Assembly: GCA_020434585.1 (NCBI GenBank)
Contig: JAGRAN010000032.1
Span: 11,013-75,012 of the forward strand
Direction: 5' to 3'
DNA length: 64,000 bases
Origin: Bdellovibrionales bacterium
GTDB lineage: Bacteria > Bdellovibrionota_C > UBA2361 > SZUA-149 > JAGRAN01
A program made the position numbers. This document shows positions 9,001-15,000 of the stretch, piece by piece; positions within the stretch are counted from its first letter, which is position 1; each line of letters starts with the position of its first letter.

Positions 9001-12000
9001 GATTTGTGAATCTGATCAGAGACGCTCTTGAGCCGCAGATGGAGACGGTGCTGATCGGGGACTTAGCATGGGATTCTAAGAAAGAACTGGACGGGCTCAA
9101 GGCGTATCCGTGCAAGCCTGACGTAGTGATTCTCAGTTACTATTTTAACGATATTTTCAATGAGGCAGTGAGCCAAGGTGTGGTTGCAGCTCCTCAGCCG
9201 ACCCCGGCCCCAAAACTGCTTCGGCCCTTAGTCGATCATTTTTACCTATTTGATTTCGCGTGGACCATCTACGATCGCCGATTCGGAGGTCATAGCGGCG
9301 TAGTTGAGCTAATTGAAGCAGCGTTTAATTCGAAGGAAGTGTGGGCTGCTCACAAGCAACAACTGAAAGATATTGTGAAGTATACAAGAGACAACGAAAT
9401 AAAATTGATTACAGTAATATTTCCTGTGCTATCTGCGGTCGATGTGACAAGAAAGTTTGCGCATCAGGTAGCAGAAGTATTTGTGGAAGAGGGCATAAAG
9501 ACAATCGACTTGTCGTCTGAGCTATCGATGTATTCCCCTCGCCAGTTAGTTGTCAACGCGTTTGATAGTCATCCAAATGAATTTACCAATCGCTTAGTCT
9601 TTGAAAGCTTGAGTGAAGAACTTTTAAAATTAAAAGAAGAGAGCGCTTCTCGAGCTAGCGAGCCTCCCGCGCGATTTGTCGGTGAAATGTAGTCTTTGGT
9701 TTACTTAGCGTCTTGAAACCAGGCTTTTCTGCCTTCGCGGTGTTCAAAGAACGTTGCGCCGTCGGTTTCAATGACTCGGTAACGGGTTGGTAGACATTGG
9801 ACTGCAAGAGTTTGAGCCAGTGTCCATTGCATATTAGACGTAGAGATTTCTTCCTGAGGGACGCCGTTCGGGTAGCCAATCTTTTTGCCAGCCCAATGTT
9901 TCGATTGCTCAGACTGACTTCTGTTTGATGAGTCATAAAAGAGAATATCGTGCTTTGACAGTTGTGAGCTCGGAGCACCTATCTTTGTTCTTCGTACATT
10001 ATCTTTGTCGCAGTGTGGAAGCTTGGGAACTGTCAACTTAGGTTTGGGGCCGCTATCAGGGGCTTGGTAATCCTCGGGGTCAATTTGTGCGCGCTTTTTT
10101 GATAGTGAGTAGATTACGGCTGTTGCCGGAGCGGAAGTGGTGCTCGGTTCTAACTTAAGGGGAGATCCAGAGCGTTTTGGATAGTGGATAGTATTATTGT
10201 CCCTTTGATTGAGCTTCGCTAGTTGAGTGTCAGTGCCGACTACGCTTCGACCGGTAATCTCCGGTGCTTTAAATTGACCTTTTAAATTGAATAAGTTGAT
10301 CAGGCTATTTTGGTTGCCGGCAAAGATGTGGTTTTTCCCGTCTGCGCTGACTATCCATGTAGGAGACGTTTCGAGTGAGAACTGATTCTTCAACTTATCT
10401 ACTGTAACGATACTGGATGGATGGAAATTCGCGTTTTCAAGCAGCTGCATCTGCTCAGCCTTCTTCTCGTATTCAGCTGGGGTAATCGGGTTGTTGCGAT
10501 TATTTTTTTCTGCAAGAAACTTTTTGGCCTCGGCCTTTGAGCGAAAATTAAGCACAGGTTCGGGCGTGCTCTTTAGAACCGCCTCATAGTTGAGCATCAC
10601 TATTTGTGCACCGGCCAATTTACTGAATTTTTGAATTTTGTTCAGCTGTTCCACGGCATCTGCAAGCTGTTTTGCGTCGGTTCCCTCTACAACGAGAGTT
10701 AACGCTGCTGGATCTTTTGAGTATTCCGCGCGGTAAGGTTGAGAAAGCTTTTCAGCTTTGGCTGGTTCGCGGCTTTTGGGCGGGGAGCTGACCGTTTTTA
10801 GCGCAGGTGCTTGAATCGCACCTGGTTCGCGAAATCCAGATGTTGATTTCTGGACCGAGCTTTCGCTGCGCATCAGCATTGACCGTGCTTGGCCCATTAT
10901 TCTGTTAGCGTTTTGCAGCATTGCTGCGTTGTCACCGGAGGGAGGCATCGATGCCGGAGCGGTGCTTTTAACTTTTGCGTTAAGTTCTTCCTGTGAAACC
11001 TTAAATGTATGCTCAGAATCTGGCATCGCAGCATCTAGTTGTTCGAGCTTTTTCTCGGATGGTCCTTGCTTGGGGAGCTTATACTTCGATCGAGTTCTTG
11101 GGGAGATGTATCCGGAGTTTGGGATTTTTGAAGGGTTTTCGAAGATTCCCTGGTTTGCAGCGGTGCCGCCGAATATTCCTCCGCGAACATCAAGGCCGTC
11201 TTCAGCTTGCGCCGGTAGAACAGACTGGAGTTCAGACGTGTTGCAAATGAAAGCTGTATAAAAAGTCTTACTCGCCATTTGATCTCAAAAAGATATTCCT
11301 GAGTGCTAAGGAATAAACGGAAAAACCTTTGCCGCCGACTCAGCAAACGATGCAGCTGCAGCTGGCCAGTCAAAACTTGTCCCGTGAATCTCGCCTTTGT
11401 AGAAATTCCCTGTAGCATCGTCCTTATCAATTCCTAAAAATGCTCCAACTATACCGGGTGTGGGGTTAAGGATATCGGCATAAGGAAACCTATAGCAGCC
11501 CCATCCGAATACGCGGAAACGTTCGTTCTGCGGCCACATGTTGCCGCGGTACGGACAAGTGCATGCAATGCGCTTGTTCCAGTACAAAAAGCGTTTGCTA
11601 CCGTTGTCGTCCGGATTTCCGTCTTTAGGATAGATACCGCGCATACTTCGGTCGTTGATGTCGTCCATGCGCATGCACTGACTCTTGGCCGGGGAGATCA
11701 TTTGCATCTTGTCGACGCTATCGTCTCCAAGCAATCCGTCGGCAAACTTTGGCAGGGGTTGCTCAGGTTTTTCAAGCAGCGGCTCAACTCGGGTCATTAA
11801 CTCGATTGCACGACGGGCCAGGAGTGCTCCTGACTCCATGCTGGAATGGTGTCCGCTAAGCGAGCCAGTAAGCGGATAGAGCTGTCCACCTCCACGAAAG
11901 CAGTTTCGCTTCAAGGCGGTGTTAGTCGGAGCTACTCCAAGCGCCGGCATTAAGTCGCGATACTCGTTCCAGCCGCCAGTGAGAGACTTCCGCGCTCGAT

Positions 12001-15000
12001 ACGAGGCGCAAGTCGCATTGCGCAGGTAACTTTCAAGATATGGCATGGAGCCGGTCGGGCCGTACTCTCCGGTGTCTTCATCGTACTGCGACTCGCCAAA
12101 ATCTTCTGGGGTAATCTGCAAGCCCATCATTATGGCCGGCGAACTCATTAAGTAACGCTGATAGCCGGTGGAGCCACCGATTAGAGCGGAAAGATCGGGG
12201 ATGCGCCAGACGGATTGGTACTGCAGCTGCTCTGTCCAACCCCAGATGTTTTTGTCATCTTCTTTTTGAAGAGTGTCGAAGAAGCATTCCTCGTTTCCCT
12301 TCTTGTAGCCGTTATATACGAAGGGGAGTGGATAGCAGCCAATGAGCACTCCATACACTCGAATTTCATTCCAGATTCCCCCAAATTCCCATTCTCCCTC
12401 GGGTCGCTTTCTTGAAGTAGCGTCCTGTAGATACGAGCGGTAGATGTGGGCATCGCTGTGCGAATTTAAATCTGGAGGGCTAATGCCGGCGTGGGCACTG
12501 TTGCCCAGGTGCGGATGGTCTCTAAGCTCAGGGGGGATATTCGCAGCCGATGTGTTTACCAGCCACTTCTCTTCAAGCACTTGATTCGCAAGTGTCTCGT
12601 AGCCGGCTTCCAGTTGCTCGGAAAGAACTGAGTGAACGAGGTCAGGGCGGGGTAGGCGAACAGTCGCAGGATCGATAACATTAATTGAAGCAACGCCAAA
12701 TTGGCTGATTTCGACTTCATATTCTGGCCACCAGTATTCCCAAATTTCTCCGGTGTTGTCTTTAGTTGGACAACTGCTGAAACTACCGTCAACTCGAATT
12801 CTACTAGGTGCGCACATCGGACAGTATGGCGATATCAAACGCGGCTCCATACAGTCTCCGAGGACTGATATATCTGTAGGATCGACTGCCTTGAATGAAT
12901 CTGTTGCCCAGTCGACGTAAGAGTTCGTGTTGTAGGGTTCGTTCTTCCACGGATGGTCCGGATAAGTGCCAGACCCTCCGCCGTACTTCTGTGCGGCGCG
13001 TTCGCCGAGCGGGCCGTCTTGGTTATTGAACTCGCGCATCGTTTCAATTGTTGAGTTCCAGGTTCGAATGTCGCTGCCGTTGGGAAACCTGCTCGGGCTG
13101 GGTGAGGGGGGAACTGGATCGGGGATGTACGGAATCTGGCACAGGCCGTTTGCAGAAAATACCAGTAGAAAGAGAACCTGCCGCCAAAACCTGTTTAAGT
13201 AGTGCTGCTTCATTTGTAACCCACCGTAAAATGTGTGATTAACACATAGCCCGTTATAAAGTATTATGCGCCTTTGAAGATCAAACGTGATGTTCGCCAC
13301 CCTGAGTCGAGGAACGAGTAGATTTAACTGAGTAAATTCAGCAGCTTAGACCAACTCACGCCCGACGGAGGGTGGACTAATATGTTTAGACAATGCAAAT
13401 GACGCCTAAGCGGCGAATGGAAGCGGCTAGATTCAACCCCGATGGCCGCTGTGAATAGGTTATGCAGGACAGCGTTTAAAGTGTTGTTTTTGCGGTTCTA
13501 TCACTCTTTGTAGTCGAGCTTTCTAACCACCTACGCTGGCCGTAAGTATTTACCCCTAGGTAAATATGCAAATATCTCATAAATACAGCATATTAGCGCA
13601 GGCCCAGTTTGTTGAGGGTTTTGGTCGAATTGTCGATCCTTTGTATGAGAGAAAAGGTATTTTCTCGTAGGTTTACGTCCTCAGCTCGACTCTCGCTTCG
13701 GCGGGGACTTTCCAAGGATTAGGGTCCGGTGAAGTTAGGTTTCGGCGAAAACATTTCGTCGCTGCGCGCTCAGCGCAATTTGTCTCGCGTCAATCGCGAG
13801 CTTACCGGGGTGTATACACGGCTCTCAAGCGGCATGCGCATCAATACTGCGAGCGATGATGCTGCCGGATTGGCAATCAGCGAAAGTCTAAACAACGATC
13901 AGCGGGTGTTCGGTCAAGGCATTCGAAATCTCAACGACGGGATCAGCCTGCTTAGCATAGCCGACGGTGCCGTCGAACAACTCACAAACATAACCATTCG
14001 TCTTCAGGAGTTGGCAACGCAGGCCTCTAACGGATCTCTGGGCAACAATCAGCGCCAGGCGCTCGACGAAGAAGCTCAGCAGCTTTCTCAGGAGTATTTT
14101 CGCATTGCCCGAACAACGGAGTTCAACGGTCTGAACCTCTTTGACGGATCTGTGGAAGAGATGCACCTGCAGGCAGGCTACGGCGATAACGGCGGAGTGA
14201 CGTCAGATTTGGGTGGTGGAGTTGGCGACGGCACATTCAGCACACCGGTGGATATGTACATCCCTTCAAACACTACCCGCGCCCTAGCCATACAAACTGC
14301 TGACCTGGATGGAGACGGAAACATCGATATGGTTGGAGCTGGTCGTGAAGGTGCGGGTGGGATTTGGATGGCCTTCGTTCGCATGGGCAACGGTGACGGA
14401 ACCTTTGGCGATGAAACAATTTACGAGGTGGCTAACGGCGTTGCCAGCGTCCGCCTGGGTGACATCAACAACGATGGCAATTTAGATATTATTACCAGCG
14501 GTGTAAATTTAACAGATCAGGATGTTAGTTATCGATTTGGAAACGGGGATGGGACGTTTGGTGAGCTGATCACGATCGGACTTGGGATGGGTGCGGGCAA
14601 TACCTCGTACGGTGCGGAAGTGGGCGACTTCAATGGAGACGGCAATCTTGATATCGTGACGAATGACAACGTCGGAAATACCTATTTGCTTACAGGAAAC
14701 GGAACAGGAGGTTTTGTCGAGACGCATCCAATACCGAACCTCGGCGGCTCGGTTCACGCTCAATACGGCGTGGGCGATATGAATGGGGACGGTATCGACG
14801 ACATCGTTGCCGCGTATGAAAGTGTAGGAGGGAATACGGACCTAGACGTGTACTTCAGCAACGGCGACGGTACGTTTACCTTCAATCAGACAATTGGCAT
14901 CGGCAATGCGGGAATTATCTCAACCACGGCACCTCCATTGCTGGTAGATTTTAACAATGATGGTGCGCTGGATGTGCTGGCCGGCGACGGAGTTGGCTAC

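Follow-up and report, generated by a model that had tools for sequence, protein, structure and literature searches.

Neither F-pilus biogenesis nor DNA transfer proceeds without TraU, TraW and TrbC, three proteins that are mechanistically opaque. Reviews describe all three proteins as confined to type IV secretion systems (T4SS) of the F-like kind (PMC7555446, PMC12999216), and in the literature we found no TraU homologues outside conjugation systems. What, then, is a TraU-like gene doing in a 64 kb stretch of a Bdellovibrionales contig (the window), where a preliminary description had noticed an orphan pair of genes, one resembling traU and the other a trbC/traW fusion, and had set them beside a divergent gene for a propeller flagellin? 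Our analysis supported that description in part. As judged from profile comparisons, the first gene product is a genuine, distant homologue of TraU, the homology being shown for its C-terminal half, and the pair is an orphan, but family profiles gave no match to TrbC or TraW in the second product and the link to the flagellin did not hold.

The two genes are neighbours on the minus strand and 27 nt apart, as had been described, and both the open reading frames (ORFs) and the sequence bear this out. The cassette is laid out in the window as follows.

13214–13728, no strand: intergenic region of 515 bp upstream of the cassette, divergently common to the flagellin gene
11306–13213, minus strand: TraU-like gene, 635 aa (ORF 11306–13300, likely start at the ATG at 13213)
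13139–13213, minus strand: predicted signal peptide of the TraU-like protein, about residues 1–25, with a hydrophobic core
12179–12916, minus strand: N-part of the TraU-like protein, residues ~100–345, with family-specific motifs, TraU homology unproven
11534–12178, minus strand: C-half of the TraU-like protein, residues 346–560, homologous to TraU ~191–330 by profile comparison
11279–11305, minus strand: inter-gene spacer of 27 nt, read from the sequence
9701–11278, minus strand: partner gene, an ORF of 525 aa
10244–10726, minus strand: middle domain of the partner, residues 185–345, with SPTWIV...G, possibly an alpha/beta domain of the TrbC/TraW type
9704–10066, minus strand: C-terminal domain of the partner, residues 405–525, possibly TraW-like

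The first product had been given as 636 aa, a count that includes the stop codon; the protein has 635 residues, about double the ~330 of a normal TraU, as the preliminary description had stated. GGTGGG lies 6 nt upstream of the ATG at 13213, and the GTG at 13300 is an unlikely alternative start; the partner gene has no obvious ribosome-binding site. Because the spacer is 27 nt long and relatives keep the gene order with short gaps, the two genes are probably co-transcribed. The 515-bp intergenic region presumably carries the cassette promoter, and no convincing sigma-70 match was found on its minus strand. All strings that had been quoted from the two proteins are present and colinear: in the TraU-like protein CMEPRLISPYCPMCAP at residue 121, YWWPEYEVEIS at 160, GGGQLYPLTG...RRAIELM at 441 and FLYWNKRIACTCPY at 542, and in the partner SPTWIVSADGK... 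at 305, ILFYDSS at 445, QSKHW at 458, LAVQCLPTRYRVIETDG at 491 and REGRK at 514.

TraU (PF06834) is the sole Pfam match of the 635-aa protein (E = 1.1e-5), spanning residues 442–551 of the protein and positions 196–304 of 306 in the profile, the C-terminal third of the model. The match that the preliminary description had anticipated is thus present, yet its 25.5 bits lie under the cut-off of 26.5. An NCBIfam scan of the protein gave no TraU match, nor anything else. Among 47 family members, 4 matched Pfam TraU at E ≤ 0.01, and none matched any other Pfam family. For profile–profile comparison, reference sets of TraU, TraW and TrbC were taken from 13 diverse plasmids of the mating-pair formation type F (MPF_F), namely F, R27, IncA and plasmids from Alcaligenes, Alicycliphilus, Acinetobacter, Vibrio, Leisingera, Burkholderia, Megaira, Citrobacter, Proteus and Providencia; the plasmid TraU sequences were gathered with R27 and Leisingera TraU as queries, and tblastn with F TraU yielded near-identical matches. 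The profile of the 47-member family aligned by hhalign with the 13 TraU sequences at a probability of 89.5–90.4% (E = 1.4–2e-6) and a score of 56.0, against 15.4 ± 2.4 for column-shuffled TraU and 17.7 for reversed TraU, and the alignment was colinear across the entire TraU length.

The two halves of the protein contribute unequally to this result. The C-half alone (residues 346–560) aligned with TraU 191–330 at a probability of 94.8% (E = 5e-8), whereas the N-half (residues 100–345) gave no significant alignment with TraU 1–190 (probability 0.5%, E = 0.12), its score of 16.1 lying within the shuffle null of 12.6 ± 2.6. The third and fourth of the quoted strings therefore stand in homologous sequence, and the first and second are no more than plausible as TraU homology. 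The motifs of the C-half are CASYR, C-x-GGGQLYPLTG, ARRAIEL, DK(L/M)Q..P...C and YWNKR.AC.C, and the block around GxLYPLTG was aligned both times when the single sequence was compared with F TraU and with R27 TrhU. In the N-part the family alignment shows conserved HPW, C-x-EPRL, C..C.P, EYWWPE..E.NNFG, EAHxYRT and WTE..WRxPxLS motifs. In a greedy alignment the N-half motifs C..C.P, G..YWEP, H.Y and SE..P.W are colinear with TraU, although they are not significant alone.

Close homologues of the TraU-like protein are few: a search of 5.8 billion clusters gave 8. When 1.84 billion representatives were searched by profile, 110 proteins came up, nearly all of 500–950 aa, each standing for a cluster at 50% identity and all from uncultured metagenome-assembled genomes (MAGs) and metagenomes. 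No TraU of canonical length was evident among these 110; the few proteins near that length were fragment-like, and one that was inspected was N-terminally truncated. The size range and the failure to retrieve canonical TraU indicate that the TraU-like proteins, by sequence, form a separate and rare family. The hydrophobic N-terminus (Kyte–Doolittle mean of 2.29 over 10 residues) and the 13 Cys residues of the window protein confirm the signal peptide and the richness in Cys that had been noticed; 12 Cys would remain in the mature protein, most of them are kept in >90% of the 47-member family, and homologues carry signal peptides with cleavage sites of the A-x-A↓Q type. An AlphaFold2 model of the 635-aa protein was confident (pLDDT 82, pTM 0.84) and formed one chain. 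Neither this model nor the sequence of the window protein found a solved counterpart in the PDB, and sequence queries with F TraU, TraW and TrbC matched nothing there either, so that no structure of these three is solved. A PHROGs search gave no match and hence no phage link. Fusions of partner domains to TraU-like proteins were not found among 116 proteins. Two TraU-like proteins, at 7746–10502 of locus L010 (918 aa) and at 3898–6558 of L012 (886 aa), have long charged, low-complexity insertions.

We compared the surroundings of the TraU-like gene in 12 loci, the window and 11 related ones, which include MAGs named Bdellovibrionota or 'Deltaproteobacteria' and one locus from a 210 kb contig; scans yielded 4 related loci from GTDB genomes and 3 from JGI metagenomes. 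In 9 of the 12 loci BLAST detects a partner homologue in the gene that immediately follows the TraU-like gene; in L015 the N-terminal motif identifies one, and the pairing persists down to 27% identity of the TraU-like protein. In an all-against-all comparison of the 12 loci the partner was the only neighbour that recurred with the TraU-like gene across the family. Both ORFs are intact in all full-length loci. In comparison with an 81%-identical relative, pN and pS (the proportions of non-synonymous and synonymous differences) were 0.12 and 0.83 for the TraU-like gene and 0.28 and 0.82 for the partner, which places the partner in the same range as the neighbouring genes for the 376-aa (0.22 and 0.88) and 536-aa (0.33 and 0.77) proteins; pN and pS are given instead of dN/dS because synonymous sites are saturated (pS about 0.83). 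The pair is conserved and under purifying selection.

Other neighbours that were considered as parts of the cassette (the divergent genes of 376, 536 and 533 aa, a DHDPS-family gene and a Wzy-like gene) were rejected, each being confined to one sublineage; the DHDPS-family gene recurs in 4 loci and the Wzy-like gene in 3, all of one sublineage. A second, partial cassette is found in the same MAG on a contig of 2,097 bp (P0002/P0011; GenBank KDD66_18580, KDD66_18575), with 91% identity to the window copy for the TraU-like protein and 79% for the partner, and may be either a paralogous copy or a product of strain heterogeneity or mis-binning. Downstream of a distant TraU-like protein (P0047), positions 2458–2970 of locus L032 encode a secreted protein with a Thr/Pro-rich and then an extremely Gly-rich region, and the contig ends before any globular domain of this protein.

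The partner protein consists of an N-terminal leader, a variable low-complexity region (residues 29–184), a conserved middle domain, a variable linker and a conserved C-terminal domain, and its identity to the counterpart in L003 is, by successive region, 0.55, 0.68 (185–345), 0.37 (linker) and 0.66 (405–525). The middle domain is the most widely conserved portion, and the motifs P.C, D(I/V)LFYD..Q and CLPTR(Y/F)R are conserved in the C-terminal domain. Homologues have clear signal peptides ending AQA↓(D/E)D. Word-indexed searches for homologues of the partner, whether by single sequence or by profile, yielded 3 close proteins only; the window partner is 100% identical to a GenBank protein from a Bdellovibrionales MAG, encoded on a contig of 94 kb. 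In the window and in L001 the partner is fused, and in L005 it is split between adjacent genes at 2347–3492 (381 aa, middle domain) and 3496–4116 (206 aa, C-terminal domain). TrbC and TraW behave likewise, being separate in F and fused in R27 and IncA. Fusions of this kind, which the preliminary description had mentioned, do occur: BLAST placed TrbC N-terminally and TraW C-terminally in R27 TrhW and in the IncA 'TrbC family' protein, and a TrbC–TraW fusion in F-like systems has been noted before (PMC12999216). In every F-like plasmid examined, traW and/or trbC directly flank traU.

Family profiles did not bear out the TrbC/TraW identity on which the preliminary description had staked its reading of the partner. 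A Pfam and NCBIfam scan of the window protein gave no match, the Pfam TrbC and TraW hidden Markov models (HMMs) matched neither this protein nor 9 relatives, and custom HMMs built from 13 TraW and 13 TrbC sequences matched no partner homologue. In hhalign comparisons the C-terminal domain aligned with TraW at E = 0.0061 (23.2 versus a null of 11.0 ± 2.6, reached by 0 of 100 shuffles) and far more weakly with TrbC (E = 0.39), and the middle domain aligned with TraW at E = 0.0043 (25.0 versus 11.3 ± 1.9, 0 of 100) and with TrbC at E = 0.022 (20.6 versus 11.8 ± 2.8, 1 of 100); TraU, used as a control, gave E = 0.14 with the C-terminal and E = 0.88 with the middle domain. In the C-terminal alignment 'DILFYDSSNRSQ' was paired with TraW 'lvFfD..d..Q' and 'LAQTLAVQCLPTRYRV' with TraW 'L..RfGI..vPa.v', and both blocks coincide with motifs that the preliminary description had pointed out. 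Because the hhalign probabilities for the partner domains are only 2–8% and the column shuffle is a lenient null, the proposal that the partner is made of very divergent TrbC/TraW-type domains is a lead only, and we hold it to be somewhat doubtful.

Of the ORFs scanned against Pfam in the 64 kb window, which were those of ~120 aa or more, a size above that of pilin-sized small ORFs, none encodes a T4SS ATPase, coupling protein, relaxase or channel component. The ~6.6 kb that adjoin the window on the right (read from a related contig) likewise showed no T4SS genes, and no T4SS families occur among the called genes of the 11 related loci. The orphan status that had been proposed thus holds in the window, and the pair recurs without T4SS genes in its relatives. 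The flagellin fared differently. The genes on the other side of the intergenic region are as follows.

13729–15666, plus strand: propeller flagellin gene, with FG-GAP repeats between Flagellin_N and Flagellin_C (PF13517, 7 matched stretches)
15719–20083, plus strand: three co-directional genes divergent from the cassette, with products of 376 aa (SGNH-like), 536 aa and 533 aa (both membrane proteins)

The insert in this flagellin is, from its repeats, consistent with a beta-propeller. The 81%-identical relative (L003/L004) has the same gene order and no FG-GAP flagellin, so that a link of the flagellin to the cassette was ruled out, its adjacency is incidental, and the gene, being absent from the same position in L003/L004, seems to have been inserted here recently. 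Another flagellin gene, of the conventional type with Flagellin_N and Flagellin_C, lies 18 kb from the propeller flagellin (33424–34881, minus strand, 485 aa).

Envelope and glycan genes make up the immediate surroundings of the cassette. They encode two glycosyltransferases, one of GT2 and one of PMT_2 type, a Wzy_C/O-antigen-ligase-like protein, three SGNH esterases and two multi-pass membrane proteins that lack annotation. The 536- and 533-aa membrane proteins match no family, and it is only in the close relative that the trio at 15719–20083 keeps its synteny with the cassette. A Tad/Flp locus starts at the right end of the window with a TadE-like gene (63116–63550, plus strand) and continues, with RcpC, at 4987–7493 of L028; in L002 a Tad/VWA gene lies ~8 kb from the cassette. 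More distant genes of the window are of housekeeping kind (Dus, M17 aminopeptidase, MsrA, Tag, MtnA and a TonB/ABC iron-uptake set). The gene at 2638–4356 (minus strand) encodes a 572-aa protein with an N-terminal GNAT acetyltransferase and a C-terminal histone-deacetylase-family domain. Paralogous DUF6502 genes lie 6 kb apart at 45206–46018 and 51731–52546, both on the minus strand, in a stretch that also holds a CHAD-domain gene and a fatty-acid desaturase gene. G+C is raised (0.575–0.61 versus about 0.50 elsewhere) at 30001–32000, 1–2000 and 4001–6000, and a 499-aa antisense ORF that overlaps the M17 aminopeptidase gene at 30.5–32.2 kb is probably a by-product of high G+C.

Several other accounts of the pair can be set against these data. 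The TraU likeness might be a coincidence of motifs in a low-complexity, Cys-rich sequence, an idea to which the Pfam score under the curated cut-off, the insignificant N-half and the lack of a solved TraU structure to confirm the fold lend something; it is nevertheless hardly credible given a C-half alignment at E = 5e-8 and 95% probability, a whole-profile score about 17 standard deviations above the shuffle null, the same block aligned independently by F and R27 TraU, and TraU as the only Pfam family matched by any of 47 members. If the homology is real, the pair could be the decaying remnant of an integrated F-type conjugative element, in keeping with the TraU homology itself and with a Y1 transposase ~8 kb away in L003/L004, a trace of mobile DNA near the close relative. 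The intact ORFs and the pN and pS values of both genes argue against such a remnant, the cassette is kept across lineages down to 27% identity and always without T4SS genes, Cys and motif conservation is strong throughout the family, and there is no tRNA gene in the window and no integrase or relaxase among the scanned ORFs; we regard this account as very improbable. The pair might instead be the trans-acting part of an F-type T4SS encoded elsewhere, a split locus. F-specific Tra proteins have been described as restricted to F-like T4SS (PMC7555446), and the DNA covered amounts to 64 kb of a 94 kb contig plus ~6.6 kb to the right of the window. Against this, no T4SS gene lies within ±10 kb in any of 12 independent loci, the family is of double length with conserved motifs of its own and canonical TraU was not retrieved among 1.84 billion representatives, and the surroundings are chromosomal housekeeping and envelope genes, which leaves a split locus improbable.

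The account with the most in its favour concerns the partner, which may be lineage-specific and unrelated to TrbC and TraW, the strings SPTWIV.., CLPTRYR.. and REGRK then reflecting a strand-turn-strand pattern generic to small alpha/beta domains and the TraU link alone being real. The silence of Pfam and NCBIfam on the window protein, of the Pfam models on 10 family members at E ≤ 10 and of the custom models fits such a view, as do the hhalign probabilities of 2–8% against a lenient null, and the middle domain scores no worse against TraW than against TrbC, hence the similarity is non-specific. What pulls the other way is the C-terminal domain, which aligns with TraW in two colinear blocks (lvFfD..d..Q and L..rfgI..vPa; E = 0.006, 0 of 100 shuffles) and much less well with TrbC (0.39) or TraU (0.14), together with the TraU homologue next door, an arrangement met in all the F-like plasmids examined, and the split and fused forms that mirror TrbC and TraW. 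On balance we put an unrelated partner just short of an even chance.

The explanation that we favour, and consider fairly probable as a whole, is that the pair is a conserved chromosomal two-gene cassette of bacteria of the Bdellovibrionales/Bdellovibrionota type. Its first gene would encode a Sec-exported, disulfide-rich protein of ~635 aa with a TraU-homologous C-half, the remainder being a family-specific elaboration, and its second gene a partner that is likewise exported, in which a disordered N-terminal region precedes two conserved globular domains, maybe of a very divergent TrbC/TraW type. The two proteins may form a periplasmic or outer-membrane-associated complex, by analogy with TraU, TraW and TrbC, which published work assigns to a single group of interacting periplasmic proteins, associated in context with the outer membrane (PMC7555446, PMC12999216). 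Taken together, export, disulfides, the TraU core, the secreted partner and this interaction group make a periplasmic complex the most economical model. The complex would act independently of any T4SS and could be an assembly or stabilization factor for a non-T4SS envelope or surface structure. Both the periplasmic location and an interaction between the TraU-like protein and its partner are inferences, as are the identity of the partner as TrbC/TraW and the structure on which the complex would act. The earlier suggestion that the module was exapted and may serve another surface structure is reasonable, and the surface-glycan genes nearby and the Tad genes in two loci are only hints at a target.

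Several observations weigh against this explanation. The Pfam TraU score of 25.5 bits is 1 bit short of the gathering threshold of 26.5, and the N-half (residues 100–345) is not significantly similar to TraU 1–190. The N-terminus of the window partner (11194–11278, residues 1–28) is weakly hydrophobic, with a best 10-residue Kyte–Doolittle mean of 0.75, and on its sequence the export of this copy is uncertain. No member of the partner family is matched by Pfam TrbC or TraW models (10 members, E ≤ 10) or by the custom HMMs, and an AlphaFold2 model of the partner from a 3-sequence alignment failed (pLDDT 32.5). L010 has no partner gene detectable by BLAST, and the ORF downstream in L012 is of 197 aa, with a partner-like N-terminal motif and no BLAST match. 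Finally, the absence of T4SS genes holds for the window, ~6.6 kb of its right flank and the related loci only.

The conservation of a TraU core next to a two-domain secreted partner, away from T4SS genes, implies that the TraU fold exists outside conjugation, and the cassette offers a simpler genetic context for asking what this fold does. For annotation pipelines it is a caution that a lone 'TraU' match is not in itself evidence of a conjugative element. A more far-reaching version of the proposal, in which the pair is a free-standing, T4SS-independent TraU–TrbC/TraW sub-complex that either represents the chromosomal ancestor that gave F-type systems their 'F-specific' proteins of pilus dynamics or was exapted to another envelope filament or surface layer of predatory Bdellovibrionota (for example Tad/Flp or type IV pili, or a glycan layer), seems to us rather unlikely; if true, it would provide a minimal two-protein system for learning the roles of TraU, TraW and TrbC. 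With ~110 clusters the family is rare, and its carriers are uncultured, which limits the reach of the finding.

How does the cassette compare with known systems? Of these, the Tad/Flp pilus and surface-glycan loci of Bdellovibrionota (Wzy/O-antigen ligase, SGNH esterase, GT-C) are the ones encoded around it. Within 10 kb there are genes for GT2, Wzy_C, SGNH esterases and membrane proteins of GT-C-like type, TadE and RcpC are met at the right end of the window and Wzy-like genes in 3 related loci, but these neighbours are not conserved with the pair across the family and the cassette has no homology to known components. The second protein recalls the TrbC–TraW fusions (R27 TrhW, the IncA/IncC 'TrbC family' protein, SXT), which are likewise secreted, of ~420–525 aa and made of two domains, and whose gene likewise adjoins a TraU-type gene. 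TrbC and TraW are separate in F, just as the counterparts of the partner are separate in L005 (381 + 206 aa), and the C-terminal domain gives a weak colinear alignment with the TraW core. The differences are that no similarity is seen at the HMM level, profile–profile probabilities being 2–8%, that the partner has a long low-complexity N-terminal region, that the TraW consensus has no counterpart of the conserved Cys pair C423 and C495 of the partner at the aligned positions, and that the gene order differs, plasmids having traW-traU-trbC or a fused trbC/traW followed by traU, whereas the window partner is downstream of the TraU-like gene.

The TraU of MPF_F systems (F TraU, R27 TrhU) is, like the window protein, Sec-exported and Cys-rich, and its gene likewise directly adjoins that of a secreted partner. 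The C-terminal ~170 residues are homologous, with the motifs C-x-G..G.LYPL.G, DK/R..Q..P...C and (Y/M)W(N/R)KR.C in common. In contrast to the ~330 aa of TraU, the 635 aa of the window protein include several insertions and an extension at either end, the N-terminal one helical; the protein is below the Pfam cut-off, homology of its N-half is not demonstrable, and its family is rare, separate and does not retrieve canonical TraU. An MPF_F T4SS has a co-located VirB4/TraC ATPase, a TraB/TraK/TraV core, pilin, coupling protein and relaxase, whereas none of these was found among the window ORFs scanned (~120 aa or more), in the ~6.6 kb to the right or in the 11 related loci, and the TraU-like gene is chromosomal with no T4SS genes nearby. 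Because of its score under the HMM threshold, its length and its context outside any T4SS, we do not file the cassette protein as a member of the TraU family in the annotated sense; it is a distant, T4SS-independent and double-length variant of the TraU kind.

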